A stretch of 64,000 bases of DNA from a virus: positions 31,418 through 95,417 of IMG/VR virus record IMGVR_UViG_3300025929_000001; one strand, given 5' to 3'. This document shows positions 21,038 through 60,352 of the stretch, piece by piece. The position numbers and the translations under genes were made by a program. The notes under the pieces are model-generated. The model saw nothing but the letters and a program-made list of their open reading frames with translations, did no database searches and was not told the DNA's origin. Each line of letters starts with the position of its first letter. The stretch's first letter is position 1.

Positions 21038-21456
21038 TGTTTGGTTATGACCTCGACGAGCTAGAAAAGCTATCCAACTGTCTGTTCTTTGCGGTTGCGC
21101 TTTTCTGCCGTCGACTCGTCAAGGGGGAGCGCGGTTATTTCACGATGCGCAAATCGGACTACGGTCGCTTCCCTCACTTCCTCTATGTGCGCGTAGACCC
21201 GCTTGGCAAAGAACGCTTTGTGTCTTTCGTGCCCAACGAACCTATTCCACGAGACTTCCCGCCACCCTTCTTTAAGGGTCATGTACAGTGGGGAGATCCT
21301 AAGCCGACTAAAGGGTGTCAAAGAAATGAGCTACATGACTGTTTGGCTGATTGTATGGAACATGTGGTGGATTCAAATGCACCCTGCAAGCACTACCAGC
21401 AAACACCCTGCCGCAAACGGCAAGCACCCGGCAAGCGCATAAAAATAACCCGCTAG
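21037..21456 (+). CDS. Hypothetical protein
   Basis: TGATG coupling; last + strand gene before the terminator. Confidence 0.55.
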   Translation: MFGYDLDELEKLSNCLFFAVALFCRRLVKGERGYFTMRKSDYGRFPHFLYVRVDPLGKERFVSFVPNEPIPRDFPPPFFKGHVQWGDPKPTKGCQRNELHDCLADCMEHVVDSNAPCKHYQQTPCRKRQAPGKRIKITR

Positions 21457-21480
21457 TACCTACCTAGCGGGTTTTATTTT
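21441..21480. terminator. Bidirectional intrinsic terminator between the convergent late and replication modules
   Basis: AAAAAT-AACCCGCTAG-tacctac-CTAGCGGGTT-TTATTTT. Confidence 0.85.
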
Positions 21481-21501
21481 AAACAGCTTAAAACGCTTGT
21501 A

Positions 21502-22107
21502 TTAGCTTTGCGTCATCATGTAAGACGTCCAAGGGTGCATTTCATCTGTGCGGTATTCGAAGTCCTCCAAGACCAGCAGCATTTCCCGGAACAGTACCAG
21601 CGCGCCTTCGAACTGGACTAATAGCCCGTTCTCTTGTTGAATCAAGTTATCCAGGATTGCGGTCATTGGGTTGTCGTCTGTTTTAGACGACATGCGGTTG
21701 CGCACATTGGTGATGCGCTCGATCTTAGCGGTGCTAGTAGACTCGCGCGCTTCGAACTGTTTAACCTGCTGTTCCGTCATCTGACGCATGTGCGACAGAA
21801 TGCTAGTGTGGTTAAAGTCAATACGCGGGTCGTTCATAAGCGCATTCAACATCGCTGCAAACTCCTGCATTACCCGGTCACGCAGTGGAGGTTGGTTCTT
21901 TCCAACTTGCCCGGTGCGGTCGTATTCTTCACGCCGCAGCACGTCACCTAAGATGTCGTAAGCTTCTTGCACGCGCTTGAATATAGTACCATCGTCATTA
22001 CCTTTATCCGGATGCCACATCTGCGCAAGGCTGCGGTAAGCCCTTTTAATTTCATCTGCGGTAGAGTCTTTCGCAACTCCGAGGACTTCATACAGGTTCT
22101 TGTTCAT
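21502..22107 (-). CDS. J-domain (DnaJ-like) protein
   Basis: NLYEVLGV...EIKRAYRSLA..WHPDK...F..VQEAYDIL.D..RR..YD; start re-placed at MNKNLY (22107) after AGGAG. Confidence 0.88.
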   Translation of the reverse strand: MNKNLYEVLGVAKDSTADEIKRAYRSLAQMWHPDKGNDDGTIFKRVQEAYDILGDVLRREEYDRTGQVGKNQPPLRDRVMQEFAAMLNALMNDPRIDFNHTSILSHMRQMTEQQVKQFEARESTSTAKIERITNVRNRMSSKTDDNPMTAILDNLIQQENGLLVQFEGALVLFREMLLVLEDFEYRTDEMHPWTSYMMTQS

Positions 22108-24295
22108 CTTGTGACTCCTTAGGTGTATGGCCAATATTAGCCAAGATGTTATACGTTTCCGTGATGTACCATTGATAATCAATATCCGTCGGGAACTCAT
22201 CGGGCAAGTCCATCAACGGTTGTGCCCCTTCACTACGAGGCACTTTATTTCCAGTCTTTGCTGCAATAATCTCACCTTCCGCATTCGTGCCGTAATACCA
22301 ACGAATGATAGTTCCAAGGTACTGACCCTTACCGGCGCTCTGACACGCAACCGCATAAGCATCGCGCAAGCTGCGAGCTTCCCATTCTGCTTCACCGGGG
22401 AAGCGCCACAACAGTTCGTCTTGCGGGAAAGCGCCTTTAGCTTTAACCGCTTCGATCATTTGCGACTCGGTAGCGTTAGGGTTGAAACTGTCTTTCGCAA
22501 GCTTGACCGCGCCACCGTTTACCCGACGCATTGTGGTGAACTGCGTTATGTCGCGCACTTGCGGAATAAAGTCTTCCGGCTTGGTACCATGCTCGATGTA
22601 AGCCTTCAGCGCTTCAATGCAAACTTCGTTCACCGCATTTTTCTTAGGCGCTGTCTCTGCGTACAGACCCTTCGTTTTAAACAATTTGCCCTTTTGCGGA
22701 GTCTCATAGACGGCGATATAATTGTTAATATCTTTGGAGTAAGTAGCGCGGTACCGTGTTTCTTCAGTACCAAGGCCAGTTTCCTGCTCCCATTGGGTGA
22801 CGATCTGATGGAAAATATGCTCCAAACTCCGTTTGCACTTAACCACGATACCGTCGGTGTTGACCGATGTAACTTCGATGCCTGCAAGTTCAAACCTTTC
22901 TGCCAGCATTAAAATAGACAGCTGGCCTGTCAGTGTAACCTGGATCAGCAGGTTAGGTGCATACAGGATAGACCATTTACTTCCAAGCTTACCGAACGAT
23001 CCGTTAACCACAATCTTAAGCACTTCGGCCATAATCTTGTCGTCATTCTTCTTAGCTGCAACACGCTCTTGCAGGATGTTGTAATACACTTGCAAAAATG
23101 CCGAACCTAAGTTCTCCGGTACCAGGCCAGCGTTCACAATCAGGTACGGGTAGTAGGACGTAACGTCAGTATCGACAACCACATACTCGTCGTCTGAAAC
23201 GTGTGCAATGCTCTTTTCTTTACTGTGCAATCCACCGATACCCATTTGGTAAGTGCTCTTGTTCATGGTAATAGCCATGTTCGCGAGCTCGGGTGGAATA
23301 ATAACTGCGCCGTCCATGTCGTCAACAAAGAACGTTGCATTGCGTACCGTGTCCAGCACCCAATTCATTAGCGGTGTGGAGTACTTAATGTACGCTGGAA
23401 CCTGATACTTAAAGTTGGTACCGTTCGGAAGCTCTAAACGTTTGAGATGCTTCCTGCCGCTAATGCGCCGGACTTCGCTTGCAATGATCGCTTCCGCCAT
23501 TTGCGCATCGGAGTGGCTGCGCAAGTCCAAACCGTACTTATCACCCTGCGATGCGCGAATGTCAATAAGCTTTTTGACGTTGCGGTATAGCAGTCCGGTA
23601 TTGTCCAAGTCGTTAATACAATAACGACGCGTAATTGCAATCTGATTCTCAGTAAGGAACGAACCGGGTTTGAATGGTAAGTCCTGCATGCGCTTTGCGT
23701 GCAGACGTCCAGCAACCACTTTCAAGCCGGGCCCGAGCGCGGTAAGCTCAATAAGGTCGACTTGGTTGATCTGTAACGGCTTGGTCTTATATTTCTTGTA
23801 GACTTCTTGCGCTTGCAGTTGAAATTCAATGATCATCTGCGTAGCGTCCCACAAATCTTCTGTACCGTAACCAGCCAGAGCTAGTGTGGTAACTGGAAAG
23901 TCATACTTGCGGCCGTTAAAGTTAATGATGCAGAAGTGGTGCAGAATCCAATTCAGCTTTGCAATCTCTTCATCCCAAAGGCGGTCATGGAAATCGTTGT
24001 CGAATTCAAGGTAAACGACCTTACCCGTATCTACACCCTTAAAAGCAAACAAGCAGTAGTTCGGGTAGCACTCTATATCGAATAACAACGGTTCAAAATT
24101 GTGCGCAGCTTGAACCAATTCCTCATCTGTATAAAGGTCAGGCTTAAAATTTATAGCCTCCTCCAAACCAGGCAAATAATCAGGCTCTAGCCAAAACGGT
24201 TCAGGTGGCAGCCGCTTGACCTTTTCCTTCTTTTCTTTTTTAATCTTGGACAGATCTTCCCAGAACAATCCAATGCTGTCGACACGCTTACCCAT
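22088..24295 (-). CDS. Family B DNA polymerase with 3'-5' exonuclease
   Basis: ExoI FDIECYPN, ExoII NFNGRKYD and ExoIII YCINDL; pol motifs A DTDVTSYYP, B KIVVNGSFGK and C NTDGI. Confidence 0.92.
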   Translation of the reverse strand: MGKRVDSIGLFWEDLSKIKKEKKEKVKRLPPEPFWLEPDYLPGLEEAINFKPDLYTDEELVQAAHNFEPLLFDIECYPNYCLFAFKGVDTGKVVYLEFDNDFHDRLWDEEIAKLNWILHHFCIINFNGRKYDFPVTTLALAGYGTEDLWDATQMIIEFQLQAQEVYKKYKTKPLQINQVDLIELTALGPGLKVVAGRLHAKRMQDLPFKPGSFLTENQIAITRRYCINDLDNTGLLYRNVKKLIDIRASQGDKYGLDLRSHSDAQMAEAIIASEVRRISGRKHLKRLELPNGTNFKYQVPAYIKYSTPLMNWVLDTVRNATFFVDDMDGAVIIPPELANMAITMNKSTYQMGIGGLHSKEKSIAHVSDDEYVVVDTDVTSYYPYLIVNAGLVPENLGSAFLQVYYNILQERVAAKKNDDKIMAEVLKIVVNGSFGKLGSKWSILYAPNLLIQVTLTGQLSILMLAERFELAGIEVTSVNTDGIVVKCKRSLEHIFHQIVTQWEQETGLGTEETRYRATYSKDINNYIAVYETPQKGKLFKTKGLYAETAPKKNAVNEVCIEALKAYIEHGTKPEDFIPQVRDITQFTTMRRVNGGAVKLAKDSFNPNATESQMIEAVKAKGAFPQDELLWRFPGEAEWEARSLRDAYAVACQSAGKGQYLGTIIRWYYGTNAEGEIIAAKTGNKVPRSEGAQPLMDLPDEFPTDIDYQWYITETYNILANIGHTPKESQDEQEPV

Positions 24296-24311
24296 GGATT
24301 AGTTCCTGATA

Positions 24312-27313: not shown

Positions 27314-28243
27314 TTAAAAAAGTTGTTGGGACATTGCACACGGATACTGATAGTTATTGCGTCTAGCATCCTCGTTTACAAGGTCGTTGAGCTCCATGTA
27401 ACCTAGCATGTTGTAGATTGCGCGGCTCTCGTAAATCGAGCTAAGCCGATCATAATTAAAACCCTTACGATCCAACATGTTAGCGAGCTGTTGCTGCTCT
27501 AACTCTGTAAGTGTGGTAAAATGACGCCCGTTCTCATGCTTGCTTGGACTGTCCTTGGAAACCGCGATTGGGCCGTGTTCACTGGTAAAGATGCTTCCAA
27601 ACGCAGCAGCCTGAATCCAGGAGGACGAGTCACAAGAATGCCAAGGGTAGCGCATCATCAGGTTGGGCGACGTCATACCAAACCCATGCACTTTGAGCTT
27701 CGCACGACCCGACCCGTCCATCATGCGTTCCCACACGCGGTCTAACCACACTTCTTGGTCTTTAGCCGACTTACCGACCAGACCTCCAATCGTGATGTAC
27801 GAGTAGCGCTCCACATACCAGTCAAGATAACGTATGTCCTCACCGTAGTGGAAGCAGGGTAGCGGTTTAGCATCCTGCCGTTCCATCTCGAGTTGGTTTT
27901 GCCAGGTCTTTAGCGGATCACCAATGCCGTCAAGTACGGAAGCCATGACAGCACCATCTTCAACGCGTAGGATGTCCCGGTTGCGACGGATGTAATCACA
28001 ATAATCATCAATGCTAATATGCACGCCAAGGCTGTGAGCCGAGAAAGCACCTGAGTCCAGGAACACCTTGTGGCCTTGTTGTCTGATGACATCGACGAAG
28101 CGCTGTCCAGATATGTAATGATAGGATTCCAAAATGTGGGGTACACAACCGACGATTTCTTTTTCGATGTCTGTGAGTTTTTCATAACGTGCCTGTGTCT
28201 CTCGATAGTTATTTGTGAAAACTGCCGCAAGGAACAAATTCAT
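27314..28243 (-). CDS. dpdA: DNA 7-deazaguanine transglycosylase (DpdA, TGT-fold)
   Basis: ILESYHY, FLDSGAFSA, LDGIGD, PCFHYGE, IGGLV, KVHGFG and SCDSSSW motifs; close to folE/queD/queC/queE. Confidence 0.88.
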   Translation of the reverse strand: MNLFLAAVFTNNYRETQARYEKLTDIEKEIVGCVPHILESYHYISGQRFVDVIRQQGHKVFLDSGAFSAHSLGVHISIDDYCDYIRRNRDILRVEDGAVMASVLDGIGDPLKTWQNQLEMERQDAKPLPCFHYGEDIRYLDWYVERYSYITIGGLVGKSAKDQEVWLDRVWERMMDGSGRAKLKVHGFGMTSPNLMMRYPWHSCDSSSWIQAAAFGSIFTSEHGPIAVSKDSPSKHENGRHFTTLTELEQQQLANMLDRKGFNYDRLSSIYESRAIYNMLGYMELNDLVNEDARRNNYQYPCAMSQQLF

Positions 28244-28743
28244 TTGTTTAAATCCTCCAAACTAATACGGTTGCGCTTAGCCTTATTCTCTGATTCGGTA
28301 AGATATTGCAAATTGCCAAGTACATGTAAACCCGACACTAATTCACCTTGCAGCGGAATAATGTGGTCAACGTGCAGACCTTCAGGACAATTAGCATAAA
28401 ACGCTTCTATTAAATCAAGCTCTGCCCAAAATGGTACGCGCATTAAACGTCTGGCCCTTATCAAGCTTTGACTAGCCCGAATCTTTACCGCATTTCGTGC
28501 ATAGTAATTGCGTTGCAGCTCTCGTGATCGTTCACGATTTGCCTGACGCCATTCTACGGTTTCTTGGTTCTTTTTCTTTGCATGCTTAGCATAGGACTTC
28601 TGCGTATGCTCTCGCTGACAGGTTGCGCAACCTCCCGTCACATAGCGAATATCGATGTGCCCAAACTTGCAGGGTTTGCCCGTGAAGTAATGTTTTAATC
28701 CGCGGGCTTTTGCTTCCTTGCAACTTATGATTTCCACAATCAA
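28240..28743 (-). CDS. Free-standing HNH homing endonuclease
   Basis: N-terminal YFTGKPCK.GH...C..C; C-terminal HVDHIIPL.G..VSGLHV..NLQ.L...EN..K.N. Confidence 0.88.
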   Translation of the reverse strand: MIVEIISCKEAKARGLKHYFTGKPCKFGHIDIRYVTGGCATCQREHTQKSYAKHAKKKNQETVEWRQANRERSRELQRNYYARNAVKIRASQSLIRARRLMRVPFWAELDLIEAFYANCPEGLHVDHIIPLQGELVSGLHVLGNLQYLTESENKAKRNRISLEDLNK

Positions 28744-28970: not shown

Positions 28971-29083
28971 TGTGGTAAAGCTCCTATAATAGCGCTGCCG
29001 TACGTTTAAACAGCGGGCAACGCGTTAAAAAAGCGGGTACACCCCAAAGCATACCCGCTTGATTTAAAACGCTTAAAACGCGT

Positions 29084-29482
29084 TTAAACCTTTGGGTCTT
29101 CCGCTGGAAATTCGGACGACACTGCCTGGTCTGCGACCTTGGCGTCAACAAACTTGCCCGTACTGTTCACGGTCTTTGGCGACAACTTGCCAGCGGCAAT
29201 CTCAGCGGCCGAAACTGCACCAGACAGGTCGTACTTGGAAGCTTGCTCTTTCTGGTAAGGCATCCAGCAAGCATACGCGCCGTTCGGCGGAGTTTCGTCG
29301 CCTTGCACCAGATACAGATCACGCAGTGCGAACGGGGTGCCGGTGTAGTCGAAACCACCGACGTTGATCTTGTTGTCAGCATGCACATAGCAGACCAGCG
29401 CGGGTTCCGGCTCGGTACCGGGTTCGTTGCGAAAGACCAGTACGACGCGGCCGACGGTAGGTTTGATGATAGGTGTGGTCAT
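29084..29482 (-). CDS. Conserved phage hypothetical protein (KPTVGRVV...WMPYQ)
   Basis: GAGG RBS; ATGA overlap. Confidence 0.65.
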   Translation of the reverse strand: MTTPIIKPTVGRVVLVFRNEPGTEPEPALVCYVHADNKINVGGFDYTGTPFALRDLYLVQGDETPPNGAYACWMPYQKEQASKYDLSGAVSAAEIAAGKLSPKTVNSTGKFVDAKVADQAVSSEFPAEDPKV

Positions 29483-29898: not shown

Positions 29899-30522
29899 TT
29901 ACATTGCGATTTTGAGGAACTCTGCACGAGTCTCGGCCTGGTCTTTCATCACACCGCGCAGAGCGGAAGTAACAGTGTGATGTCCCTGCTGGCAAATGCC
30001 GCGTGACTCCATGCACATGTGCCTAGCTTTTATGACAACACCGACGCCCTTTGGCTGCAAGTGCAATTGCAGCGCGTCTGCGATCTGGCAAGTAAGACGT
30101 TCTTGCACTTGGAGGCGACGTGCAAAAGCGTCAGCAAGGCGAGACAGTTTGCTAAGACCAACAATATTACCATCAGGGATATAAGCAATAGTAGCGGTGC
30201 CAAAAATATCAGCAAGATGATGCTCACACTTCGAGTAAATCGGGATGTCTTTAACGACGACCATTTCATCATAACCCTCCGAGCCGTCTTTGAACACCTT
30301 GAGGAGTTTAGCGATGTCGACGGAATACCCGCTAGTCCAGTGCTTCCAAGCTTTGACCACACGCGCTGGCGTTTCTGCCAAACCTTCGCGGTCTGCATTC
30401 TCACCTTGCACGACGCCGCCAAGCAGGTCGTAAATAATCCCTTCCTTGCTCTTTTGGGCAAGGTAGTCCATCTCGCGTTCTTCCTCGATCGCGGTCAGTT
30501 GTGCGTTGATATTGTTATCCAT
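29899..30522 (-). CDS. folE: GTP cyclohydrolase I
   Basis: REGL.ETP.RV, S.CEHH, GLSKL.R, RRLQVQERLT and H.CM..RG motifs. Confidence 0.96.
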   Translation of the reverse strand: MDNNINAQLTAIEEEREMDYLAQKSKEGIIYDLLGGVVQGENADREGLAETPARVVKAWKHWTSGYSVDIAKLLKVFKDGSEGYDEMVVVKDIPIYSKCEHHLADIFGTATIAYIPDGNIVGLSKLSRLADAFARRLQVQERLTCQIADALQLHLQPKGVGVVIKARHMCMESRGICQQGHHTVTSALRGVMKDQAETRAEFLKIAM

Positions 30523-30525: not shown

Positions 30526-30975
30526 TCACCCTGTATAAACTGCTGAGTTAGCGCCGTGTTCTTTTACTTCGCATGACACAAGCTTAACGCGACCGATTTG
30601 TCTAACATCGAACAACCATTGCACGACCATGTCGAATACCATCTTTGCGAACATCTCGCAACCGACTGCCGGAACGGTAATGACTTCTGCTATGCCTAAG
30701 CCAGCAAGCGCACAGATTTCGTCATGTTGCGGGTCATCTTCTGCGACCAGCAATTTATGGTCGAAGGTATCTTGCAGCATCTTTTTAATGCTAGCAAGAC
30801 CGCCAAAGTCAATGACCCACATGCGCTCGTCGAGCAGTTCCGACTCGAACACCAGCTTGACCGCTATTGCATAGCCATGCAGATATTGGCAGTGTGAATG
30901 CGTTGCACGCCATTGACGGAATGCGCAGCTAAGGCCAATATCATGCCCCCATTGTTTTGTGCTTTGGAATGGCAT
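30526..30975 (-). CDS. queD: 6-carboxy-5,6,7,8-tetrahydropterin synthase
   Basis: HC.YLHGY, V.DFGGL, FDHK, E..A and EHGANSA motifs. Confidence 0.93.
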   Translation of the reverse strand: MPFQSTKQWGHDIGLSCAFRQWRATHSHCQYLHGYAIAVKLVFESELLDERMWVIDFGGLASIKKMLQDTFDHKLLVAEDDPQHDEICALAGLGIAEVITVPAVGCEMFAKMVFDMVVQWLFDVRQIGRVKLVSCEVKEHGANSAVYTG

Positions 30976-31757
30976 TATACCTCCGCAGACGTGCCGCGTT
31001 CGATGTCGTAGTTGCTGCTGAGCGGCAGCTCCATCAGACCAGCTTTAACCGCACGCATCACCAGCGGGTCAGGGACACCGGCTTCTTCGAAGCCTTTTGC
31101 ACGCAGCAGCGTCGCATGGTCGTGACCGGTCGGCGGATACTTGCCGTCGTAAGATGTGTGGCTATACGCCAGCGCTGCCATGCAATCGTGTAAGCTCATT
31201 GCAAGCTTGACCGATTCCGCCTTGGTAAGCGACATCAGCGGGGTCAAAATGCGCAGTGGTGGGATTGTGCCAGCTTCGCCGGTGAAGGTACCATAGTTGC
31301 AAGCTTCTTGCAGGGTGTTGATAAATACTGCGCGGCAGTCAGGATACCCGCCGTTATCTTCCTGGCAAACACCGGTCACAAGGATGTTGCAGCCCAGGAC
31401 GTATGCGCGGTTCGCTGCAACGGTGATGAACAACTGGTTGCGCATGGGTACGAAGGTCTTTTCCAGACCGCCGGGCAGCGACTGATGGTCAGCGTACTGT
31501 TCGAGCTCGACCGACTTGTTAGTCAGTGGGGACGTACCAGCGAGGATGCCGTCGCCAAGACGGATGAACTCGTGCTTCTCGCGGGGAATACCAGCCATCA
31601 TGGCAACGTGCTGTGCGGCGTCGAGTTCGATGCGGTGTTTTTGACCGTAGTCGAAAGTCACGCAGTGCACGTCGTAACCTTCGTTGATTGCCCAGAACAG
31701 GCAGGTCGTGCTATCTTGACCGCCGGACAGAATTACAAGTGCCTTTTGCTTAGCCAT
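30975..31757 (-). CDS. queC: 7-cyano-7-deazaguanine (preQ0) synthase
   Basis: LSGGQDSTT, FDYGQKH..E, TFVPMRN, GYPDCR and TPLM..TK motifs; the C-terminal Zn-binding cysteines are substituted. Confidence 0.93.
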   Translation of the reverse strand: MAKQKALVILSGGQDSTTCLFWAINEGYDVHCVTFDYGQKHRIELDAAQHVAMMAGIPREKHEFIRLGDGILAGTSPLTNKSVELEQYADHQSLPGGLEKTFVPMRNQLFITVAANRAYVLGCNILVTGVCQEDNGGYPDCRAVFINTLQEACNYGTFTGEAGTIPPLRILTPLMSLTKAESVKLAMSLHDCMAALAYSHTSYDGKYPPTGHDHATLLRAKGFEEAGVPDPLVMRAVKAGLMELPLSSNYDIERGTSAEV

Positions 31758-31767
31758 TTTTAGACTC

Positions 31768-32469
31768 CTATTCAACATCAATTATCTTGTGGGTCTGCAA
31801 TTGCAGGATGTAACCATGCTTCATGCAGCTAGCTTTGACCGCATCGACGTTGACCTTGTAAATGACTTCGTCTTTGGGGTCCATGGGCTGCACATAGATA
31901 GGCCTGGTATTGTCTTTGGGCGGCCGAGCAAGTTGCGGCGATGCTGTGTGGCCAAGCGCTTGGACTGGCAAACCGTCCGCGTCGTTAAGGCTGTCAGCGC
32001 TTAAGACGTATTTGAAGGCGTTGATATGGCTGAGCAGCTTGGGGCTGACCTTACCCGTCTTGGGGCTGCAAATGACCACAACCTTAGAGGGGAAGTCCTC
32101 CGGCGGTGCGAGCGTGCCGTTAGTCTCGACCTGAACGGTGAAACCTGCCGACAACAGCTTTTTGCATAGCGGGGTGATGTTTTGGCGGAATGGTTCGCCG
32201 CCGGTTATGACAACCAGGCAAGGCTTGTCAAGTGGGTTAAAGAAGAACACCTGATCGACTACGTCATGCATCGACATTTCCTTGCGACCAACCGTGTAGT
32301 CGGTATCGCAACCTGGGCACTGTAGATTACAGCCAGCCAGACGGACGAATACAGCGGGGTGTCCGCTGAAAGGGCCTTCGCCTTGGATTGTGTAGAAGAT
32401 GCTATGAACCGAGAGGATGATGCCGTTTGAGTCCCGATATTTTTCAATCGGTTGTTGGTTCTGGTTCAA
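31768..32469 (-). CDS. queE: 7-carboxy-7-deazaguanine synthase (radical SAM)
   Basis: FYTIQGEG, FVRLAGCNLQCPGCDT, ITGGEP, VETNG and QTHK motifs; probable TTG start at 32469 after GAGG. Confidence 0.95.
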   Translation of the reverse strand: MNQNQQPIEKYRDSNGIILSVHSIFYTIQGEGPFSGHPAVFVRLAGCNLQCPGCDTDYTVGRKEMSMHDVVDQVFFFNPLDKPCLVVITGGEPFRQNITPLCKKLLSAGFTVQVETNGTLAPPEDFPSKVVVICSPKTGKVSPKLLSHINAFKYVLSADSLNDADGLPVQALGHTASPQLARPPKDNTRPIYVQPMDPKDEVIYKVNVDAVKASCMKHGYILQLQTHKIIDVE

Positions 32470-32629
32470 TGTAACCTCACGAGGAACAGACAAGCCCTAG
32501 GCCTGTTGTGTACGGGTTTTGATGCGGGAGGGAGTGAACGGTTTTTACCGGGAAGCGCACGTTCCTTCTAGGTGGTGCACTTGCCGACAGGATAACCGAA
32601 AACCTCCGGGATGCCAGGCCGGAGTAGGC

Positions 32630-33214
32630 TTAGGCGGCGGCAGCTTCTGCGACCGGAGCGGCAGCAGGAGCTTCTGCAACGACAGGCTTGGCGACTTGGC
32701 CGAACACGCCGTTGAAGGTTTTCCAGCGAGCGTACTGCGTGCGGGTCGTTGCGTCGTTCAGGCCTTCGGCGGCGGTACGCTTGCTCAGCAGTGCGATGGT
32801 GACAGGCTGGCCCAGTTCAGCCGACATTGCGTCAGCGATTGCCCAGACCTTGCCGCAGGCGCCGTCTGGCTTCGGACGGGTGATGCCGTTCGATTGGGGC
32901 ATGACGACCTTCGGTGCTTTCTCGACAGCAGCGGCAGCAGCCTTCTGCTCAGCGGCCAGCTTGGCAGCGGCTTCCTTGGCTTCCTTGGCGGCCTGCTTTT
33001 CGGCTTCCTTCTTGGCCTTCACTTCGGCGCGTGCCTTGTCGGCCAGTTCCTTGGCTTCCTTCTTGGCAGCATCTGCCTTGGCCTTTGCTTCAGCTTTTGC
33101 AGCGTCAGCAATTTTCTTTGCTTCTGCTTTTGCAGCAGCAGCATCTGCCTTCGCTTTTGCAGCGGCATCGGCGGCTGCGGCGACTTGTTCTGGGGTTTGG
33201 ACGACGTCGTTCAT
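32630..33214 (-). CDS. Ala/Lys-rich histone-H1-like protein with a C-terminal helical domain (paralog family)
   Basis: AK-rich N-terminal half; C-terminal ITRP..G..G.VW.IAD...T.RTQYARW; AGGAG RBS. Confidence 0.75.
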   Translation of the reverse strand: MNDVVQTPEQVAAAADAAAKAKADAAAAKAEAKKIADAAKAEAKAKADAAKKEAKELADKARAEVKAKKEAEKQAAKEAKEAAAKLAAEQKAAAAAVEKAPKVVMPQSNGITRPKPDGACGKVWAIADAMSAELGQPVTIALLSKRTAAEGLNDATTRTQYARWKTFNGVFGQVAKPVVAEAPAAAPVAEAAAA

Positions 33215-33276
33215 GTTGACTCCTACTTGTGGTTTAGCCAAGGTGGCGGGAAAAAGTGTTACTGCGATCGAGTGAC

Positions 33277-34134: not shown

Positions 34135-34190
34135 TCTAAATCTCCTTGTGCTGTTTAAACAGCTTTTATTGTAGCACAAATTTTTAAAAG

Positions 34191-42728: not shown

Positions 42729-42756
42729 ATTATAGCATACGCACGTAAATACACAA
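42729..42756 (-). promoter_or_regulatory. Extended -10 sigma70 promoter
   Basis: TTGTGT-16-TATAAT with a TGn extension. Confidence 0.6.
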
Positions 42757-42759
42757 CTG

Positions 42760-47862: not shown

Positions 47863-48134
47863 ATTTTGCCAATAGGTTTCTTCTCTTTACGCTCGAAAAT
47901 CGATATTGGCATTTTCGGGAACTTTGCTTGCATGGACTTGACAGTTTCAACAAACGCTGCCAAGTTTTGAGATTGCATCCGTTGCATCTTACCGCCAATG
48001 TTCATAACTGCGACATAGGTTATAATCTCGGAGTGGTTGCCCACAATACGACCGAGTGCGCGATCTTCTTTCTCAATCGCTGCGGCAATTGCACGCTGTA
48101 GACCTTGTTGCTCGACTATGGTGGCACCGGACAT
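47859..48134 (-). CDS. Hypothetical protein
   Basis: AGGAGAAATATC-ATG. Confidence 0.6.
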   Translation of the reverse strand: MSGATIVEQQGLQRAIAAAIEKEDRALGRIVGNHSEIITYVAVMNIGGKMQRMQSQNLAAFVETVKSMQAKFPKMPISIFERKEKKPIGKI

Positions 48135-48294
48135 GATATTTCTCCTAAATGAACCTTCTGAACTCCATCTGCTAAACGTGCGTTTATAGCGTTTATTTTA
48201 GCACATAGGGGGTAGGGTGCAAGCGCTTAAATTTGCGTGCGGTAGGGTGTTTAAAACGGGTTAAAAGCGATAGTTTTACGGGGTTAAACCCCAA

Positions 48295-48361
48295 CCAGAC
48301 AGGGTCCGTAAAGACCCTGTTTCGTCTAATTAATAGATGTAATTAATAGACTCATCAGTGG
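48295..48361 (-). ncRNA. Type I hammerhead ribozyme HH-A (cleavage GUC| between 48298 and 48297)
   Basis: CCA-CUGAUGA-[GUCUAUUAAU uacaucu AUUAA u UAGAC]-GAAA-[CAGGGUC uuuacg GACCCUG]-UC|UGG. The core is intact but stem I is short. Confidence 0.85.
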
Positions 48362-49461
48362 GACTGTTGCTGCGAATCGATTTCGGACAGCGTGCTAAGC
48401 AAGACACCGATGTTGCCTCGGACTTTCTCGAACTTAAGGTTCGCAGCCTTCAATGCTTCTTCGTGCTTGTGCGGAATCATGTTGACCATTAACAAAACCC
48501 GATCCGCACTAGCTGCCATGCTTTTGAGCTTGTGGACCGATTCGTCAGTGTGGTAAAAGGTCAGCTTAAACTTATCGCCGAACTTATCCTTTACTTCTTC
48601 AATGTGTATGGACTTAAGTAGTCCTGCGACGACTATCTTTTGTTTGCTAACAGTCGGTTCCATGGCTACCCCGATCGGGTTGTGTCTGATTGGACTTCGA
48701 TTGTGCGTCTGTGGGCGTAACATGTCTTGTACCTCCGATGATTTGAGAATGTCTAGTACGTTAACCTTAAATCGGTCAGCGAGTTTGTCCAGCAATGCGT
48801 CCAGCAATTGACCTGCGGTAAAGTCTGCCGGTGTAGCAGCTAGCGCGAGCGCTACAGGTTCCGTTATAGCTGGTGCGGGCTCCGGTACGCTGGCAGCAAC
48901 AAGGTCCACCATGTCTGCAAGCCAGTGCGCGTTGACCTTAATGTTCCCGATTGGAATGCGCCGCCTGTCTTCTGCCAAACATGATGCCTGGGCTTGGTCG
49001 AGCGCCTGGCTTAAGCTTACGAACGGTTGCTTCCTGCGGATAACCGCAACCTCATGCGCAAGCGTGATGCGCTCGTCGTGTGACCACACAATCTTAGGCT
49101 TCCGTCCCTTGATACCTTCAGGAACTTCTCGAACGACCGGTGTAGTCAGTTCGACGCTAGGTGTAGGTTGAAGCGGCCCTACGAACTCGGGCACGTCCGG
49201 TTGCTTTAACCGATACTTGTAAGCCCGCTGACCACCTGACTTATCGACTTCTAATGTGTGGTTATTAACCAGCATCTGAATTCGATTAGCCACCATCTTC
49301 TTATCATACGTAGAGCAGACATCCATTATATCAGCAGACTTTGCCCAGAGGTTAGCGGTGTTATTGAACATGTCAATGATCAGTTTACCTACCTGCGAAC
49401 GGGCTTCCGTCTGCGACTCGCTTACTACCATGCGAGCGTGTTGTATCTCTATGTTGTTCAT
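48355..49461 (-). CDS. Multidomain hypothetical protein (N-terminal winged-helix-like, C-terminal DUF2325-like alpha/beta)
   Basis: 368 aa; AGGAG RBS; the stop codon is the UGA of the hammerhead core. Confidence 0.7.
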   Translation of the reverse strand: MNNIEIQHARMVVSESQTEARSQVGKLIIDMFNNTANLWAKSADIMDVCSTYDKKMVANRIQMLVNNHTLEVDKSGGQRAYKYRLKQPDVPEFVGPLQPTPSVELTTPVVREVPEGIKGRKPKIVWSHDERITLAHEVAVIRRKQPFVSLSQALDQAQASCLAEDRRRIPIGNIKVNAHWLADMVDLVAASVPEPAPAITEPVALALAATPADFTAGQLLDALLDKLADRFKVNVLDILKSSEVQDMLRPQTHNRSPIRHNPIGVAMEPTVSKQKIVVAGLLKSIHIEEVKDKFGDKFKLTFYHTDESVHKLKSMAASADRVLLMVNMIPHKHEEALKAANLKFEKVRGNIGVLLSTLSEIDSQQQSH

Positions 49462-49470
49462 TGCTGTCTC

Positions 49471-49746
49471 CTAGTTCAAACGGGTTATCTTGGCAAACTT
49501 ACCTTGTTCCATGCTCCAGAAGTTGCCGTTTATCATGGAGCCGGCGTCGTTCTTAGCGAACGCTGCGGGTGCTAACGCTTGCTGATCTTCCAGCCCTTCC
49601 AGAACCAACTGCACTTCGCTGACGAAGGTGTCAGTACGTTCGCATATCAGCTTGGGGACGTTGCGGTGTATCTGGTATATGCGAGCCGTTTTATATAACG
49701 AGTCACCCTTCTTGGTTTCGTAGTAGGTATAGACGAAGTGTTTCAT
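49471..49746 (-). CDS. Hypothetical protein
   Basis: AGGAG RBS. Confidence 0.65.
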   Translation of the reverse strand: MKHFVYTYYETKKGDSLYKTARIYQIHRNVPKLICERTDTFVSEVQLVLEGLEDQQALAPAAFAKNDAGSMINGNFWSMEQGKFAKITRLN

Positions 49747-49767
49747 TGATCATTGCTCCTAAAAAGT

Positions 49768-49796
49768 AAAAACCCCGGCAAACATCACCGGGGCTT
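49768..49796 (-). terminator. Intrinsic terminator
   Basis: GCCCCGGUGA-ugu-UUGCCGGGGU-UUUU on the - strand. Confidence 0.75.
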
Positions 49797-49814
49797 ATGG
49801 GACGCTGTTAAGCG

Positions 49815-50330
49815 TTAAGATTGCTGGCCTTGCTTGGCAAGCTCGTCGAACTTTTCCGCAATCACACCTTGCAGACCATCGTAGCAGCCGTCGACATACT
49901 CGGCGGTTTGGATGCCTTGGTCAGCTTGGCCGCCAGCGACGTCGATTTCGCGGAACAGGATTGCAGCCAGTGCAAGCTGGGCGATGCCGGCTTCCATTAT
50001 CTGGTTTGCAAAGAACATGCGTGCATCCTGTCCTTGCGCCGGTTGGGCCGCTTGTTGTGTCGCTTGGGTTTGCGCTGGCGCGGTTTGAGCTTGTTGCGCA
50101 ACGGCTGCGCCACCCTGCTCCCCGCCAAGGGTTTCAGCGAGGTCGCCGTTGCTTTGCTCATTCCCGTTCTGACCGCCGGTGTTCGTAACGTTACCGATGC
50201 GACCGTCGGTGGCCGGGTCAGTAACTCGACCACGACCATCGCTACCCTGATTGGTTTGCTTGGCCTGAGTGGGCTGTGCTGCGCCCTGGCGGGTTTGATT
50301 TGAACGACCGCGAGTGCCTGTTGTTGCCAT
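49815..50330 (-). CDS. Gln/Gly-rich low-complexity protein with a helical C-terminus
   Basis: AGGAGCAATATC-ATG at 50330; lies 37 nt downstream of the HH-B cleavage site. Confidence 0.7.
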   Translation of the reverse strand: MATTGTRGRSNQTRQGAAQPTQAKQTNQGSDGRGRVTDPATDGRIGNVTNTGGQNGNEQSNGDLAETLGGEQGGAAVAQQAQTAPAQTQATQQAAQPAQGQDARMFFANQIMEAGIAQLALAAILFREIDVAGGQADQGIQTAEYVDGCYDGLQGVIAEKFDELAKQGQQS

Positions 50331-50362
50331 GATATTGCTCCTATAAAGATGCGATGAAGTTA

Positions 50363-50438
50363 CCGCATACACAATAAGCCCGCGTGTAAGGCGAGCTATT
50401 GTGTTTCGTCCGAGAACCACTCGGACTCATCAGTGCGG
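50363..50438 (-). ncRNA. Type I hammerhead ribozyme HH-B (cleavage GUA| between 50368 and 50367)
   Basis: CCGCA-CUGAUGA-[GUCCGAG ugguu CUCGGAC]-GAAA-[CACAAUAGCUCGC cuuacac GCGGGCU u AUUGUG]-UA|UGCGG. Confidence 0.93.
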
Positions 50439-50439
50439 A

Positions 50440-51252
50440 TTACGCTGCGGGTGCAGGCTGTTCTGCTGCCGATTGTTCGGTAGCGGCTGCTGGCGCTTCT
50501 TGCCCTTCCGGGAGTTCGAAGTTACCAGCGGGGCCGAACCCGACCGTCCACACCGGCGCAGGCTGTTGAGCTTGCACTGGCGTTGGCAGAGCGACGCGAC
50601 CGCGAACACCGTGATATGCACGCCACCGAGCGTACTGCGTTTTGATGGTGTGGTCATTCATACCGCGGATACGGCTGTCTGCTTTGATCTCCGCAATGGT
50701 TGCCGGCGTCGTTCCCGGATGCGACTTGCTGATCTCGTCCGCAACATCCCAGACCGTACCGGTCAGCGTACCAGACGCGGGGCGGGTGATGTTGTTGCGG
50801 GTCAGCTTAGCTGGCCGCGGAGGTTGTGGGGCCTGGCCTTGCAGCAGTTGGGTGACTGCGTTCGGGTCGGAGATGCCCAGTTCCTTAGCGACGTTGGCGG
50901 CTGCTTCTTCCATTTTTTGCTTGAACTCGGCAGCGACCTGTTCCGGAGTGCGATGCAGCGGGTCGGCACCATCGGGTACCACTGGAGCGGCGAGATGCTG
51001 CGCGACGAAGGCGTGCGCTTGGTCCGGCTGGATTGCGCGGCGTTCTTCGCGTTCGCGCCGTTCCTGGGCGATAACTTCTGGCGGCAGGTCGGATGCGGCC
51101 TGGTCGTTGGTGTTCGTGGTGTCTTGGGCACCTTGCAGCTTGAGCTCGTCTGCGTGCTGCTTGTCTTCAGCAGACATAACCTTGGATGCGATGGGCTTAG
51201 CAGCGACGGATTTACGACCTTTTGGTGCGACGTGGGATTGAACGTTTGCCAT
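50440..51252 (-). CDS. Protein with the paralogous helical domain, flanked by two hammerheads
   Basis: NNITRP.SG..TG.VW.VAD...T.KTQYARW; AGGAGCAATATC-ATG. Confidence 0.8.
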   Translation of the reverse strand: MANVQSHVAPKGRKSVAAKPIASKVMSAEDKQHADELKLQGAQDTTNTNDQAASDLPPEVIAQERREREERRAIQPDQAHAFVAQHLAAPVVPDGADPLHRTPEQVAAEFKQKMEEAAANVAKELGISDPNAVTQLLQGQAPQPPRPAKLTRNNITRPASGTLTGTVWDVADEISKSHPGTTPATIAEIKADSRIRGMNDHTIKTQYARWRAYHGVRGRVALPTPVQAQQPAPVWTVGFGPAGNFELPEGQEAPAAATEQSAAEQPAPAA

Positions 51253-51378
51253 GATATTGCTCCTATGATGAACTGCGGTTGGTGCTGGAAGGTTCCAGCT
51301 GGCTTAACTATATAACAATTTTGCGGTAGCGGTTGGCGTTTAAACAAACTTTCGCTAGCTTGCTGATAGGCCACCTTT

Positions 51379-51443
51379 ACTGCTGACGTAGACCTTAAGT
51401 GTCTGGGTCTACGTTTCGGATCATTAATCCTCATCAGAGCAGT
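51379..51443 (-). ncRNA. Type I hammerhead ribozyme HH-C (cleavage GUC| between 51385 and 51384)
   Basis: ACUGCU-CUGAUGA-[GGAU uaaug AUCC]-GAAA-[CGUAGACC cagacacuuaa GGUCUACG]-UC|AGCAGU. Confidence 0.94.
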
Positions 51444-51444
51444 T

Positions 51445-51726
51445 CTATGAATGAAACTCGTACTCGGCTTTCGGGGCACGCTGAATGCATCCCATAGTCA
51501 GGCGGAAGTCTGTGTGATAGCGGATGTTAATGATCCACTCCAGCCACCCTGGATGCTTGTAAGCAGGCGCATCTGCGGGGACGCGCTCTTGCGGGTAGAT
51601 GTCTATAAGCTTCGCGCATTTGACGTGCTGCGCTACGCGAGCTAAGACAGCTTCCAGCATCTGCTGATCCAGTTCCCAACCGAGAACGTTGTGAATGTTA
51701 ATCTGGCAGGTTTTATCTTGACTCAT
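51445..51726 (-). CDS. Hypothetical protein
   Basis: AGGAG RBS; the TAG stop lies 1 nt before HH-C stem I. Confidence 0.65.
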   Translation of the reverse strand: MSQDKTCQINIHNVLGWELDQQMLEAVLARVAQHVKCAKLIDIYPQERVPADAPAYKHPGWLEWIINIRYHTDFRLTMGCIQRAPKAEYEFHS

Positions 51727-51803
51727 GGCATTGCTCCTAAGTTGGGTTGAACTAGCTGCTAAACGCACGCTTATATTAGCAGCGTTTAACAGCTTTGGGC
51801 GTT

Positions 51804-52076
51804 TTACTTTGGGACGTACAAAAGTTCGACAGTGTACGCAGTTAGAGGCCGGTTCGGCAGACCGTCGAGCCTGGTCGGATGCGTATTGCTCACGGCGCGG
51901 TATGCGTCCATCGCTACGACCATATTGTCGTACTTCAGGGCTTCATCCGGGTTCTCGGTAAAGGTGATGGTACCCATACCGTCGTTCCCGTCTGGATCGT
52001 AGCTGGCCACATACATCCCGCGTTCGGGACACGGTGAGCCAATTGCCGCACCTACAATCTTAATTACAGTTGACAT
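51804..52076 (-). CDS. Hypothetical protein (PTR.DG.PNRPLTA motif)
   Basis: AGGAG RBS. Confidence 0.65.
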   Translation of the reverse strand: MSTVIKIVGAAIGSPCPERGMYVASYDPDGNDGMGTITFTENPDEALKYDNMVVAMDAYRAVSNTHPTRLDGLPNRPLTAYTVELLYVPK

Positions 52077-52086
52077 GTTGTTGCTC

Positions 52087-52272
52087 CTAAGGTTGCTTGG
52101 CGTTGTGCCATTCCACCCCGCGAAGGAAACCTTCATACAGGGTATTGATGCGAGTCGCTGGTACATTGTGTGAGCCCGCATAAGCGTGAACGTACATCCT
52201 ACCGTTCCAGACATAACGGGTCATGTCGATGTGGCACATGCGCTCAAATGCTTCACGCAATTTCTCGTTCAC
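52087..52272 (-). CDS. Hypothetical protein
   Basis: AAGGAG RBS; GTGA overlap. Confidence 0.55.
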   Translation of the reverse strand: MNEKLREAFERMCHIDMTRYVWNGRMYVHAYAGSHNVPATRINTLYEGFLRGVEWHNAKQP

Positions 52273-52484
52273 ATGTTCTCCTTTCTTAATTCATCGTAAG
52301 CGAGGTCGAGAATGCTTTGTGCCTTATCAATAGACCGCGCCATACGCCTAACAATTTCCTTATTGCGATCAGCCATTTCCTTGTCTGCTTGCAACAAGGC
52401 TATACCCGACGTAATAACGTTCATCTGCGTGCGGATGTCGTGGTTCATTTTATTAAACTTCTCGAATGCTTCTGGTGACATCAT
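52269..52484 (-). CDS. Small helical protein (weak HisKA-like H-box)
   Basis: NHDIRTQMNVI..GI.LL; GGAGG RBS. Confidence 0.55.
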   Translation of the reverse strand: MMSPEAFEKFNKMNHDIRTQMNVITSGIALLQADKEMADRNKEIVRRMARSIDKAQSILDLAYDELRKENM

Positions 52485-52499
52485 TTATCCTCCAGGGTT

Positions 52500-52562
52500 A
52501 CTCCAAAGCGGAGTCCATAGCCTGCTGACCTGTATGTGGTCACCAAGCTATGAAATTGCTTT
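52500..52562 (-). promoter_or_regulatory. RNase III-like processing stem with a switchable 5' hairpin
   Basis: AAAGC..[CAUAGCUUG-UGACC/GGUCA-CAGGCUAUG]..GCUUU; alternative hairpin ACUCC-GCUUU-GGAGU. Confidence 0.65.
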
Positions 52563-54522: not shown

Positions 54523-54708
54523 GATATTGCTCCTGAGGTGAAATGCATCTGTTGGATGCGGTTGGGTAAATGCGTATTGTACTGCTAAACGTGCGTTTAT
54601 GGTGCACATTTAAACGCGTTTTAAGCGCTTAAATGCATTTTTGCGGGGAGGGTATAGGGTACCCGCTAAAAACGCAGGCAACATGCGTTGCCCACGGTTT
54701 AAACGGTA

Positions 54709-55200
54709 TTAATAGCGCGTGCCCCGGTACCAATCCGGGTAACACACAAATTCCCCTGCATCATTGCGCCCTGTCTCGCGGATGCGGTCAGCTTCGTTCT
54801 CCGCACGCAGACGTTCTGCTGCACGCTTGTCGTTGCTACGAATCTTCCCTGACCCTTCGCAGGTGTAGCAGGTCTTATCGTACCCGCCGTTGAAATACAT
54901 TTCGCGGGACTCCTCGTCGTCAAAGGCTTCGTAGAATTCAGACTGCGTGTAGCTGCCCAGATGCCTGCAGTGGTGCCCGTCCCCTGAACAGGTTGGGCAG
55001 ATAACCCAACCGCCGCGCACTTCAGACTCTGCGGGTGAGAACTCACCACAATCGCACCCTGCCTCGGTTTCGTGGCAGTTAATGCAGATCGTTGAGGCAG
55101 ATTTGGGTGCGGAGAAGCTTTCGCACTCGCAGTAGACTTCAGGTTCGCGGCAGACTGTGCATTTTGGCAGGGAATCTGGATCAATTTGATTGTAGCGCAT
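54709..55200 (-). CDS. Cys-rich Zn-finger protein (two CxxC..CxC units plus a DnaJ-type CxxCxGxG pair)
   Basis: CTVC..CEC, CINC..CDC, CPTCSGDG and CYTCEGSG motifs. Confidence 0.7.
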   Translation of the reverse strand: MRYNQIDPDSLPKCTVCREPEVYCECESFSAPKSASTICINCHETEAGCDCGEFSPAESEVRGGWVICPTCSGDGHHCRHLGSYTQSEFYEAFDDEESREMYFNGGYDKTCYTCEGSGKIRSNDKRAAERLRAENEADRIRETGRNDAGEFVCYPDWYRGTRY

Positions 55201-56580: not shown

Positions 56581-56678
56581 GTCAAGCTCCTAAGAAGGTG
56601 ATGCGGTGGTGGTGCAACTGGTATTGTACTGCATAATGTGCGTGCAGTATATGCTTGCAGTTGGGTAAGTGATATGCC

Positions 56679-56930
56679 TTACTCCAATACAACCGTGATA
56701 CCTGCTTGTTCGAGAACGTTGCGCAGGAGGTTGGTGACTGCTGGAGCATAAAATTGCCGGTTGGCTTCCACGACAGATATGTGGTTAGTTTCCCATTCCT
56801 CTGCTGCAACAGGATACGCAGACAAGCTAATTGCATCCTCGTCAGTGAAAAGGTAGACGGTAGGCTTAGCCGGGGTCTGGTCTGTACGACGACCGGTTGG
56901 GAAAGGCCAGGAAGTAGGTTTGTCGGACAT
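56679..56930 (-). CDS. Hypothetical protein
   Basis: AAGGA RBS. Confidence 0.6.
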   Translation of the reverse strand: MSDKPTSWPFPTGRRTDQTPAKPTVYLFTDEDAISLSAYPVAAEEWETNHISVVEANRQFYAPAVTNLLRNVLEQAGITVVLE

Positions 56931-56939
56931 TTGGGTTCC

Positions 56940-57176
56940 TTATGCTTGTGGTAAGTTGAAAAGCTCGATGTCGGTGTAGTTACCATCGGCATCTTTGAGT
57001 GCAAGAGTAAGCTTTGCCTGGTCTTGTTGAATTGCGTATTCGTACAAGCGAAGCGCATTGCGGATCACCTCTGTGTACGAAGTAGCTTCGCTCGCTTGCT
57101 TAATCCATTCCAAGCGCCGATAGCTATTTTCTGGTATCTTGAGCTTGAACTCGCGTGTTGGTTCTTTTTTAAGCAT
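56940..57176 (-). CDS. Ribbon-helix-helix-like DNA-binding protein
   Basis: F.LKIP..SY.RLE.IK....S.TEVIRNALRLYE. Confidence 0.65.
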   Translation of the reverse strand: MLKKEPTREFKLKIPENSYRRLEWIKQASEATSYTEVIRNALRLYEYAIQQDQAKLTLALKDADGNYTDIELFNLPQA

Positions 57177-58153: not shown

Positions 58154-58154
58154 G

Positions 58155-58430: not shown

Positions 58431-58432
58431 GG

Positions 58433-59317: not shown

Positions 59318-59319
59318 GG

Positions 59320-59880
59320 ATGTGACTCCGGTTGGTTGTGCTGCGTTGAAAACTTAATTGTACAGGTAGATTAGTTGGATATGCTAGTGGGTTATATGTA
59401 GGCCGGGTACTTAATTTGTGGTCGGGAGGGTAATATAATAGTGAAGCGCTGCGTTAGCAAACTAAGCCGCACATACAATATAAAAAATACTTTTTTACCC
59501 TACGGCCCCACCTCCCTACCCTAAAATTGAACAAACCCATTACTAATCATACTAAACCTGTATATTCACTACTATTTTACCTATATAAACACCCTTTTTA
59601 TCATCATTAGCATGCTAGTACAGTTTTAAACAGCATCTGCACTCCTGATAGAGATTTTTATATACCAAGGGTGGGTACCCAAAATCCTGAGCAGGTAAAA
59701 TTAGTACTATCGCGGCATAGTTTCTGCCGAGAATTAGTGACCAACCCTACCTACCCTAAAAATGCAGTCAACTAAGGGGTCTGTCACACCCCTTAAGTAA
59801 TGCATTCAACTCTTTTTATAGCCTCCCTGCCCAAATAATAGTGATAAAACACACTATGGCGAGCAAGAGAGCGATATGCA
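59320..59880. other. ~560-bp AT-rich non-coding region (origin/control region candidate)
   Basis: No ORF of 60 aa or more; strand-skewed CTACCCTAAA repeats; motifs shared with 63.7 kb; two hairpins at 59760-59875. Confidence 0.5.
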
Positions 59881-59883
59881 TGA

Positions 59884-60141
59884 TTATCCAACCTTCCTTA
59901 TGTCGTCCAGCCAGGATTCCATAGCATTACGGAACACAAGCAAGTCAAATAATATGGCTTCGTGACCCTGAACCAGCGTCCCTGCTCCAGAAAAATTGAC
60001 AGCAGTCACGTCCACATGGTGACGAAACGCGGGATTGTCCAGAATACGGTACAAATGCTCCGCATATTGTTCAGCGCGGTCCAGATCGGCTTCGAAACTA
60101 GCACTGTCGTAAACAGCCGACTCGTTGGATTGTGTGGTCAT
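59884..60141 (-). CDS. Hypothetical protein
   Basis: AAGGAG RBS. Confidence 0.6.
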   Translation of the reverse strand: MTTQSNESAVYDSASFEADLDRAEQYAEHLYRILDNPAFRHHVDVTAVNFSGAGTLVQGHEAILFDLLVFRNAMESWLDDIRKVG

Positions 60142-60352
60142 CTTAATCTCCTTAACGGTTTAAACGGGTTTTAAGCGCTTTAAATGCAAAGCTAGGGTTA
60201 GGTACCAGCTACCCGTTAAAAACAGCGTAGCGGTACCGCAAAACGCGTGCTATGGGGTTGATTTAATGCGCTTTAAAACCCTTAATACCGGGCGAAAGTA
60301 CCCGACACTAACCGCACCATTCGAGATAGTGTGGTTAGTAGCTGATCCTTTC

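Follow-up and report, generated by a model that had tools for sequence, protein, structure and literature searches.

Islands free of GA/TC in control regions of a phage encoding a homologue of the DNA 7-deazaguanine transglycosylase DpdA

The window analysed here comprises 64,000 nucleotides of the IMG/VR virus record IMGVR_UViG_3300025929_000001, i.e. the final 64 kb of a phage genome that measures 95,417 bp and has direct terminal repeats of 127 bp. It contains islands in which the dinucleotide GA and its complement TC are absent or nearly so. This depletion goes beyond base and neighbour composition, as judged against a composition-matched control; it is actively maintained through sequence divergence and, among the phages sampled, is confined to those with a homologue of DpdA. 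The islands do not form one family and comprise intergenic control spacers as well as coding stretches. With moderate confidence, we attribute the pattern to selection that purges the DpdA target, GA/TC, from regulatory DNA. An earlier reading of the window from its letters alone (hereafter the sequence-only reading) had described the islands as a dispersed family of unmodified, bendable landing pads. It had also proposed that positional information is written here as the absence of a modification target, and for control regions this remains the best-supported interpretation, as the purge is kept through divergence and was found in DpdA-positive phages only.

GA/TC occurs in the window at a frequency of 0.114 per position, or about one GA/TC per 9 bp. 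Nine GA/TC-free runs reach at least 70 bp and 17 reach at least 55 bp, where a first-order Markov model predicts 0.55 and 4.0, respectively (300 simulations); no simulated run exceeded 111 bp, compared to 167 bp observed. The long islands of the sequence-only reading were recovered with none or one GA/TC each, and so were its shorter runs (Table 1). Mononucleotide shuffling of the individual intergenic islands gave 6–22 expected GA/TC versus 0–4 observed, with P ≤ 1e-4 in 10 of 12 cases and values of 3.5e-4 and 4e-3 for 34144–34199 and 42689–42776. AG/CT, the composition-matched control, is present in the islands at ordinary density (6–14 each). Pooled over the intergenic islands, GA and TC have observed-to-expected ratios (o/e) of 0.10 and 0.03, whereas all other dinucleotides fall between 0.68 and 1.86. 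On the scale of the 95-kb genome, the GA/TC gaps are the most extreme of the 10 strand-symmetric dinucleotide classes, and AG/CT, with equal base content, shows no gaps above expectation. The Markov simulations, together with the shuffling and the AG/CT control, lead us to reject chance or composition as the cause. The ban extends over one protein linker and many short spacers between operons that are distributed across 40 kb.

For comparative purposes, 72 non-redundant DpdA-positive loci (1.28 Mb) and 35 DpdA-negative loci (0.63 Mb) with the same polymerase/clamp/helicase module were surveyed in IMG/VR. Significant, mostly non-coding GA/TC-free runs numbered 18 in the DpdA-positive set (17 of 72 loci) versus none in the 35 DpdA-negative loci; the nine other dinucleotide classes returned 0–3 and 0–5 such runs each in the two sets. 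Spacers of at least 80 bp with a GA/TC density below 0.03 likewise amounted to 23 of 319 in DpdA-positive loci versus 0 of 141 in DpdA-negative loci (Fisher 2.6e-4). The median spacer densities are equal (0.103 vs 0.105), and the purge therefore concerns a minority class of spacers, not non-coding DNA generally. The same medians, together with a per-gene synonymous z of −0.55, reject a genome-wide mutational decay of GA. Further islands with runs up to 361 bp are present in the complete genomes of four relatives, and Pseudomonas phage Iggy, which is cultured and has a GA-only motif, shows ten excess runs, four of them intergenic; the islands of Iggy include 3179–3286 and 60074–60586.

The persistence of the ban can be followed at the spot of 28983–29097, just upstream of the dpdA operon, where an island is present in many relatives; the position of this island is conserved in 10 of them. 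Eleven homologous islands at this spot, with a mean identity of 49% and from phages of 40–56% G+C, hold 1 GA/TC in total. Within-column shuffling raised this number to 77 ± 6 (minimum 58 in 1000), compared to AG/CT counts of 128 before and 146 after the shuffle. The largest island is coding and behaves in a similar fashion: its 55 codons contain no GA/TC where synonymous recoding predicts 11.7 (P < 1/3000). The position of the encoded linker is conserved, and each of six phages (this one and 5 relatives) has 0 GA/TC versus 6.7–11.7 expected (P < 1/3000 each), with a peptide that has strongly diverged among the six. Column shuffling of the linker gave 37 ± 4 GA/TC, compared to 0 observed.

A second coding run lies in the first early gene, 62745–63461, which as a whole is GA/TC-poor but only partly purged (gene recoding z = −2.7). 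In the relative G007 (L187), the 771 bp of positions 485–1255 contain 7 GA/TC and a run of 361 bp free of it, and the peptide encoded there is devoid of Asp and Glu. This segment comprises the early control region plus ~110 codons at the start of the first early gene, which is homologous to 62745–63461 in the window. The early control region/first early gene stretch of G006 (13033–13347) is also almost GA/TC-free. Coding islands occur in DpdA-negative phages at a rate similar to that in the DpdA-positive set. They represent Gln/Pro/Gly linkers and are largely explained by amino-acid composition (2.2–4.6 GA/TC expected). On account of this similar rate, and of the compositional origin of those put in frame, a link of every coding island to DpdA is rejected.

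The DpdA homologue is the presumed writer of the modification. Searches with tblastn showed 59–62% identity to the DpdA proteins of Queuovirinae and Iggy-like phages, and alignment gave 60% identity with the enzyme of Escherichia phage CAjan and 57% with that of Iggy. Neither Pfam TGT (PF01702) nor NCBIfam matched the phage protein, and Pfam-based screens would consequently miss the system. The genes for 7-cyano-7-deazaguanine (preQ0) synthesis near dpdA are syntenic with those of CAjan and Iggy. Both constituents of a phage 7-deazaguanine (dPreQ0) module are thus found, a DpdA homologue and FolE, QueD, QueE and QueC encoded next to it, and no DNA methyltransferase families were detected in the phage. 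The DpdA of Iggy modifies GA only, at ~97% of GA sites (PMC10484667), and that of CAjan modifies GA plus GGC (PMC7544227). By extension from these two characterised homologues, GA is the predicted target of the DpdA of this uncultured phage; a GA-targeting modification enzyme is plausibly present, and a modified base very probably takes the place of G in every GA step of the phage DNA. An HNH/endonuclease VII-type gene (28240–28743, minus strand) is located in the same operon, between the GA/TC-free island and dpdA, and is a candidate for a nuclease acting on unmodified DNA.

Apart from the coding stretches (33597–33764, 62965–63037 and the first 83 bp of 21374–21513), the islands occupy spacers of minus-strand early and replication genes, typically the interval between the upstream stop codon and the ribosome-binding site (RBS) of the following gene. 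Thus, the GA/TC-free islands of the sequence-only reading are real, although they are heterogeneous and three are coding; the notion of a landing pad in a spacer fails for the largest of them. The hairpin clusters in the islands are far more stable than those of shuffled sequences (z between −2.7 and −5.9). At the convergent junction 21374–21513, the hairpin folds on both strands (z = −3.5 and −2.7), and relatives also have an island following the polymerase gene. What had been described as phased, bendable TTTAAA tracts are mostly the paired arms of imperfect, hairpin-forming TTTAAA/GCGC palindromes, e.g. GCATTTAAGCGC-loop-GCGTTTAAATGTGC, which adjoin GC-rich intrinsic terminators at the three sites given in Table 1, each a GC-rich hairpin followed by a T run. 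Copy counts bear out the palindromes reported as shared: 3 of 3 copies of AACGCGTT, 3 of 9 copies of AAGCGCTT and 5 of 9 copies of GTTTAAAC are inside islands, the last being seven-fold over-represented in the whole genome. The motif reported for 54.6 kb and 60.2 kb is indeed common to both islands (TTTAAACG.GTTTTAAGCGCTT), and GCAGTACAATAC is shared by 56601–56671 and the 54.6-kb island. As for the claimed ~10-bp phasing, the pooled power of W–W steps (W, A or T) at 9–11 bp was 14.7 versus 9.4 ± 1.7, a value matched by 1 of 500 shuffles. At the level of single islands, P < 0.05 was reached only at 48169 (11-bp periodicity, P = 0.002), 54556 and 60150, and the short islands showed no 9–11 bp periodicity.

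Extended −10 promoters of the form TGCTAnAAT are found in four islands, so that of the phage-activated promoters suggested earlier, the presence of promoters in some islands is retained. Where a −35 hexamer accompanies them, it is TTGCAC, TTGTGT or CTGGCA and never TTGACA. Sigma-70 promoters, defined by a −10 element with TGn extension or a −35 element at 16–18 bp, are located at the four promoter positions in Table 1; a scan for the generic sigma-70 consensus revealed no enrichment. The promoter at 34168–34189 falls within the listed open reading frame (ORF) 33385–34179, whose PHROG match begins at residue 16, and the true start of this gene is probably the ATG near 34134. Island 56601–56671 may be partly coding. 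Rfam covariance models (preQ1 riboswitch, hammerhead and others) gave 0 matches at gathering score over the whole window, and 0 matches at E ≤ 1 on 47500–52500; a riboswitch or ribozyme identity of the islands is rejected accordingly.

Table 1 Positions of the GA/TC-free islands and of the modification genes in the window
Position	Strand	Feature	Elements	Measure
21374–21513	.	Convergent junction of late (+) genes and polymerase (−) operon	Basic C-terminal tail of ORF 21037–21456; bidirectional terminator ~21445–21482; A/T–GC block	139 bp, 0 GA/TC
28983–29097	−	Island upstream of dpdA operon	TTTAAACGCG/CGTTTTAAA palindrome 29061–29090; terminator 29025–29060; third hairpin 28992–29023	1 GA/TC in 115 bp; fold z = −2.8
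33597–33764	−	Largest island; Ala/Pro-rich linker of PHROG 7864 protein, one of four paralogues		167 bp, 0 GA/TC
34144–34199	−	Short island with promoter	Extended −10 promoter TGCTACAAT (34168–34189)	55-bp run; shuffle P = 3.5e-4
42714–42776	−	Island in primase/MazG-like gene spacer	Promoter TTGTGT-16-TGCTATAAT (42729–42756)	62-bp run
48169–48298	−	Island with promoter	TTGCAC-16-TAAAAT, TGC extended −10 (48195–48222); A/T–GC blocks	1 GA/TC in 130 bp
51295–51352	−	Short intergenic island upstream of paralogue 50440–51252		57-bp run; shuffle P = 5e-5
51750–51813	−	Short island	Strong hairpin 51754–51794	63-bp run; fold z = −5.9
54556–54734	−	Island	Terminator 54673–54696 (terminator scan); palindromic hairpin GCATTTAAGCGC/GCGTTTAAATGTGC 54606–54636; leader hairpin	1 GA/TC in 179 bp vs 22 expected; folds z = −2.9
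56601–56671	−	Short island in first codons of ORF 56582–57058 (ORF lists)		70-bp run; shuffle P = 5e-5
59444–59513	−	Short island within 566-bp spacer 59318–59883	TTGCTA-17-TATATT (promoter scan)	69-bp run
60150–60294	−	Island ending at RBS of gene 59884–60141	Nested hairpins; motif TTTAAAGCGCTTAAAACCCGTTTAAAC	1 GA/TC in 145 bp; fold z = −3.6
62965–63037	−	Coding run in first early gene 62745–63461 (a paralogue)		72-bp run
63692–63755	−	Island upstream of first early gene	CTGGCA-17-TATACT, TGC extended −10 (63697–63725)	63-bp run
27314–28243	−	dpdA, DNA 7-deazaguanine transglycosylase homologue; presumed modification writer		PHROG 887, E = 6e-81
29899–30522	−	folE		Pfam GTP_cyclohydroI 2e-66
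30526–30975	−	queD		PHROG QueD 4e-40
30975–31781	−	queC		Pfam QueC 8e-53
31768–32493	−	queE		Pfam Radical_SAM

If the target is purged from regulatory DNA by selection, the islands would be inter-operon control modules made up of intrinsic terminators, palindromic hairpins, extended −10 promoters and leaders, plus one gene-linker segment. DpdA would exchange the G of GA for preQ0 after replication. A segment with GA on neither strand could not be modified, and would thus remain ordinary DNA in an otherwise modified genome. The probable gain would be legibility of the unmodified sites to the RNA polymerase of the host and perhaps to phage regulators. The sigma-70 −35 consensus, TTGACA, contains the GA target. 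The island promoters avoid GA, with TTGCAx or TTGTGT plus a TGn-extended −10 in place of TTGACA. In this explanation, the modification would harm recognition of promoters, terminators or protein sites. On templates with 7-ethynyl- or 7-vinyl-7-deazaguanine, the RNA polymerases of E. coli and B. subtilis are almost blocked. The block probably concerns initiation, with an influence of the G in the −35 element (PMC4838386); by analogy, the 7-cyano group of preQ0 would be similar in size to the ethynyl and vinyl groups. Moreover, the ban affects both strands alike and a single class out of ten, namely that targeted by related enzymes, which argues for a DNA-level cause tied to DpdA.

Several observations weigh against this explanation. 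The GA target of this particular DpdA, from a phage known as an uncultured genome, is itself deduced. GGC/GCC, the second target of CAjan, persists in the islands with mild depletion (o/e 0.66, 15 sites), and the term “unmodified” of the sequence-only reading applies only if this DpdA is GA-only like that of Iggy. Most spacers of this phage have an ordinary GA/TC density, and only a subset is purged. In a polymerase tree, DpdA-positive phages are divided from DpdA-negative ones by a single branch, and the association of DpdA with islands therefore amounts to one phylogenetic contrast, not 17; within the DpdA-positive clade, the island trait is scattered on the tree (11 changes). CAjan, for which GA modification is proven, has no islands, as is the case for 55 of the 72 DpdA-positive loci and for the E. 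coli Queuovirinae-like loci. Modification is thus compatible with working promoters in those phages, and the islands are rejected as a trait of all GA-modifying phages. It may be speculated that the broader motif of CAjan, GA plus GGC, makes escape impractical. Finally, the islands also span terminators and leaders, which an argument from promoter recognition alone does not require.

DpdA could also be the cause for a different reason. GA in melted, extruded or protein-occupied DNA might escape the enzyme and become exposed to host restriction or a phage nuclease, so that selection removes a liability. The islands are clusters of hairpins, the purge is strand-symmetric and covers terminators and leaders rather than promoters alone, and the HNH/EndoVII-type gene sits between island and dpdA, all of which would fit. 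Conversely, 97% of GA sites are modified in Iggy and refractory regions are not reported (PMC10484667); there is no obvious structure in the coding linker island, and the specificity of the nuclease would be putative. We regard this variant as rather unlikely. A comparably low probability is assigned to a lineage-specific regulatory grammar that is unrelated to modification and uses words free of GA/TC by coincidence (TTTAAA, GCGC, CGCG, GGTACC, TGCTAnAAT), kept by hairpin or binding-site constraints. Such motifs are common to the islands and to relatives, any clade-specific trait would co-occur with DpdA in what is a single clade, and the lack of islands in CAjan is in line with this. Still, islands without shared motifs (42.7, 56.6, 59.4 and 63.7 kb) are equally GA/TC-free, the hairpin sequences vary among relatives and never create GA/TC, and the same ban holds at synonymous sites of a fast-evolving coding linker. 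The banned step is, moreover, the one of ten classes that related enzymes modify.

A constraint on RNA, by which a ribonuclease or Rho would read the early transcripts and thereby select against UC and/or GA, is considered very unlikely. Islands do sit in untranslated parts of early transcripts rich in RNA structure, and Rho binds YC dinucleotides. However, CC on the message strand is not depleted (o/e 1.05–1.20) whereas UC and GA are both close to zero, and Rho/YC avoidance is rejected on this ground. A strand-symmetric ban would need two separate causes at the RNA level and one at the DNA level, and the 21.4-kb island is a convergent junction that is read on both strands. The candidates of the sequence-only reading had included bendable pads of helically phased A-tracts for nucleoid proteins or for gyrase, comparable to the strong gyrase site of phage Mu, a view that we consider highly improbable. 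The A/T-step periodicity at 9–11 bp, weak but significant in three or four islands, is in its favour. The phased tracts are palindrome arms, though, and short islands lack the period; curvature also fails to explain why GC-rich terminator stems and the coding linker have lost GA/TC. Both the Mu site and the proposed pads are non-coding DNA elements for which an action through DNA shape is proposed, but Mu has a single central site and the present islands number a dozen or more, located at operon boundaries in the stretch from 21 to 64 kb. A Mu-type gyrase site thus finds no support, and nothing points to nucleoid-protein pads.

Four paralogous genes (32630–33241, 33385–34179, 50440–51252 and 62745–63461, all on the minus strand) each contain or abut a GA/TC-free island. 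Their products share a ~55-residue domain (P..GACGRVW.IA...AEGIN.AT..TQYA.WK). The domain recurs in two proteins annotated as putative transcriptional activators, CAjan gp46 and Iggy gp51. AlphaFold predicts a three-helix bundle (predicted local distance difference test score, pLDDT, 87). A fold assignment was not retained, as Foldseek provided only weak homeodomain-like rows (E about 2). Taken together with selective purging, these data allow for a more far-reaching but improbable interpretation: the islands would be a map of unmodified DNA in which promoters, terminators and possibly a replication origin in the linker of 33385–34179 are legible only without the mark. The four three-helix paralogues would serve as readers, and the phage would have a means to separate regulatory from bulk DNA, or incoming from newly made DNA.

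With regard to the genome as a whole, plus-strand structural genes, including giant tape-measure-like proteins, extend up to ~21.4 kb of the window. From 64 kb back to 21.5 kb the genes are nearly all on the minus strand, with small early ORFans followed by a replication module of primase, ligase, AAA ATPase, DUF669, Cas4-type exonuclease, helicase, clamp and family-B polymerase, in which queE, queC, queD, folE and the DpdA homologue are all embedded. A search for close relatives through the early ORFan proteins found none. Under-represented sites in the whole genome (G000) are TCTAGA (o/e 0.05), AGATCT (0.14), GGATCC (0.24) and GANTC (0.61). Among the surveyed loci, one DpdA-positive IMG/VR group (L075–L084), with a DpdA about 57% identical, has GA/TC frequencies of 0.14–0.147 and no islands; its enzyme may have a different target. 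Achromobacter phage vB_Ade_ART (MH746817.1; L001/L002) was discarded as a 95-kb relative, as the record looks like two joined phages. It carries two each of terminase pairs, portal/capsid sets, tape-measure genes and polymerases, with DpdA in the second half only and no islands there.

Among known systems, the dPreQ0 modification of Iggy and CAjan shares with this phage the gene set dpdA, folE, queD, queE and queC in the same replication module, and the step purged here is their published target. Conversely, this phage has a 95-kb genome with giant tape-measure-like genes, its modification is predicted from genes, and CAjan lacks islands. In the avoidance of restriction sites and short palindromes, selection similarly removes a short DNA word because an enzyme acts on that word. 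The classical case is genome-wide and driven by a host enzyme, whereas here the word is common throughout the genome, gone from about a dozen control regions plus a linker, and the enzyme is the phage's own. The islands of vertebrate genomes rich in CpG dinucleotides (CpG islands) are likewise local promoter islands set apart by their relation to a dinucleotide-specific DNA modification. Vertebrate CpG islands escape methylation and retain the target in a genome that otherwise decays. In the phage, the islands are without the target and the rest of the genome keeps it, and the origin is selective rather than mutational. The words intergenic and promoter are absent from both the Iggy paper (PMC10484667) and the CAjan paper (PMC7544227), and a literature search for modification-target-free regions found no description. 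The present phage contributes the pattern of many short spacers, the comparison with DpdA-negative relatives and the divergence tests.

Hypermodifications of phage DNA have been studied almost only as shields against restriction and clustered regularly interspaced short palindromic repeats (CRISPR) systems, and little work has addressed what they cost the phage in terms of its own gene expression. If the explanation favoured here is true, the mark interferes with the reading of DNA, and phages bear its cost in the form of rewritten promoters, terminators and even protein linkers. The unmodified stretches would stay open to host nucleases and CRISPR. Furthermore, the target motif of an uncharacterised DpdA would become predictable from sequence, as the short word missing from spacers. 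As Iggy is a cultured phage with the same islands, the idea is directly testable.

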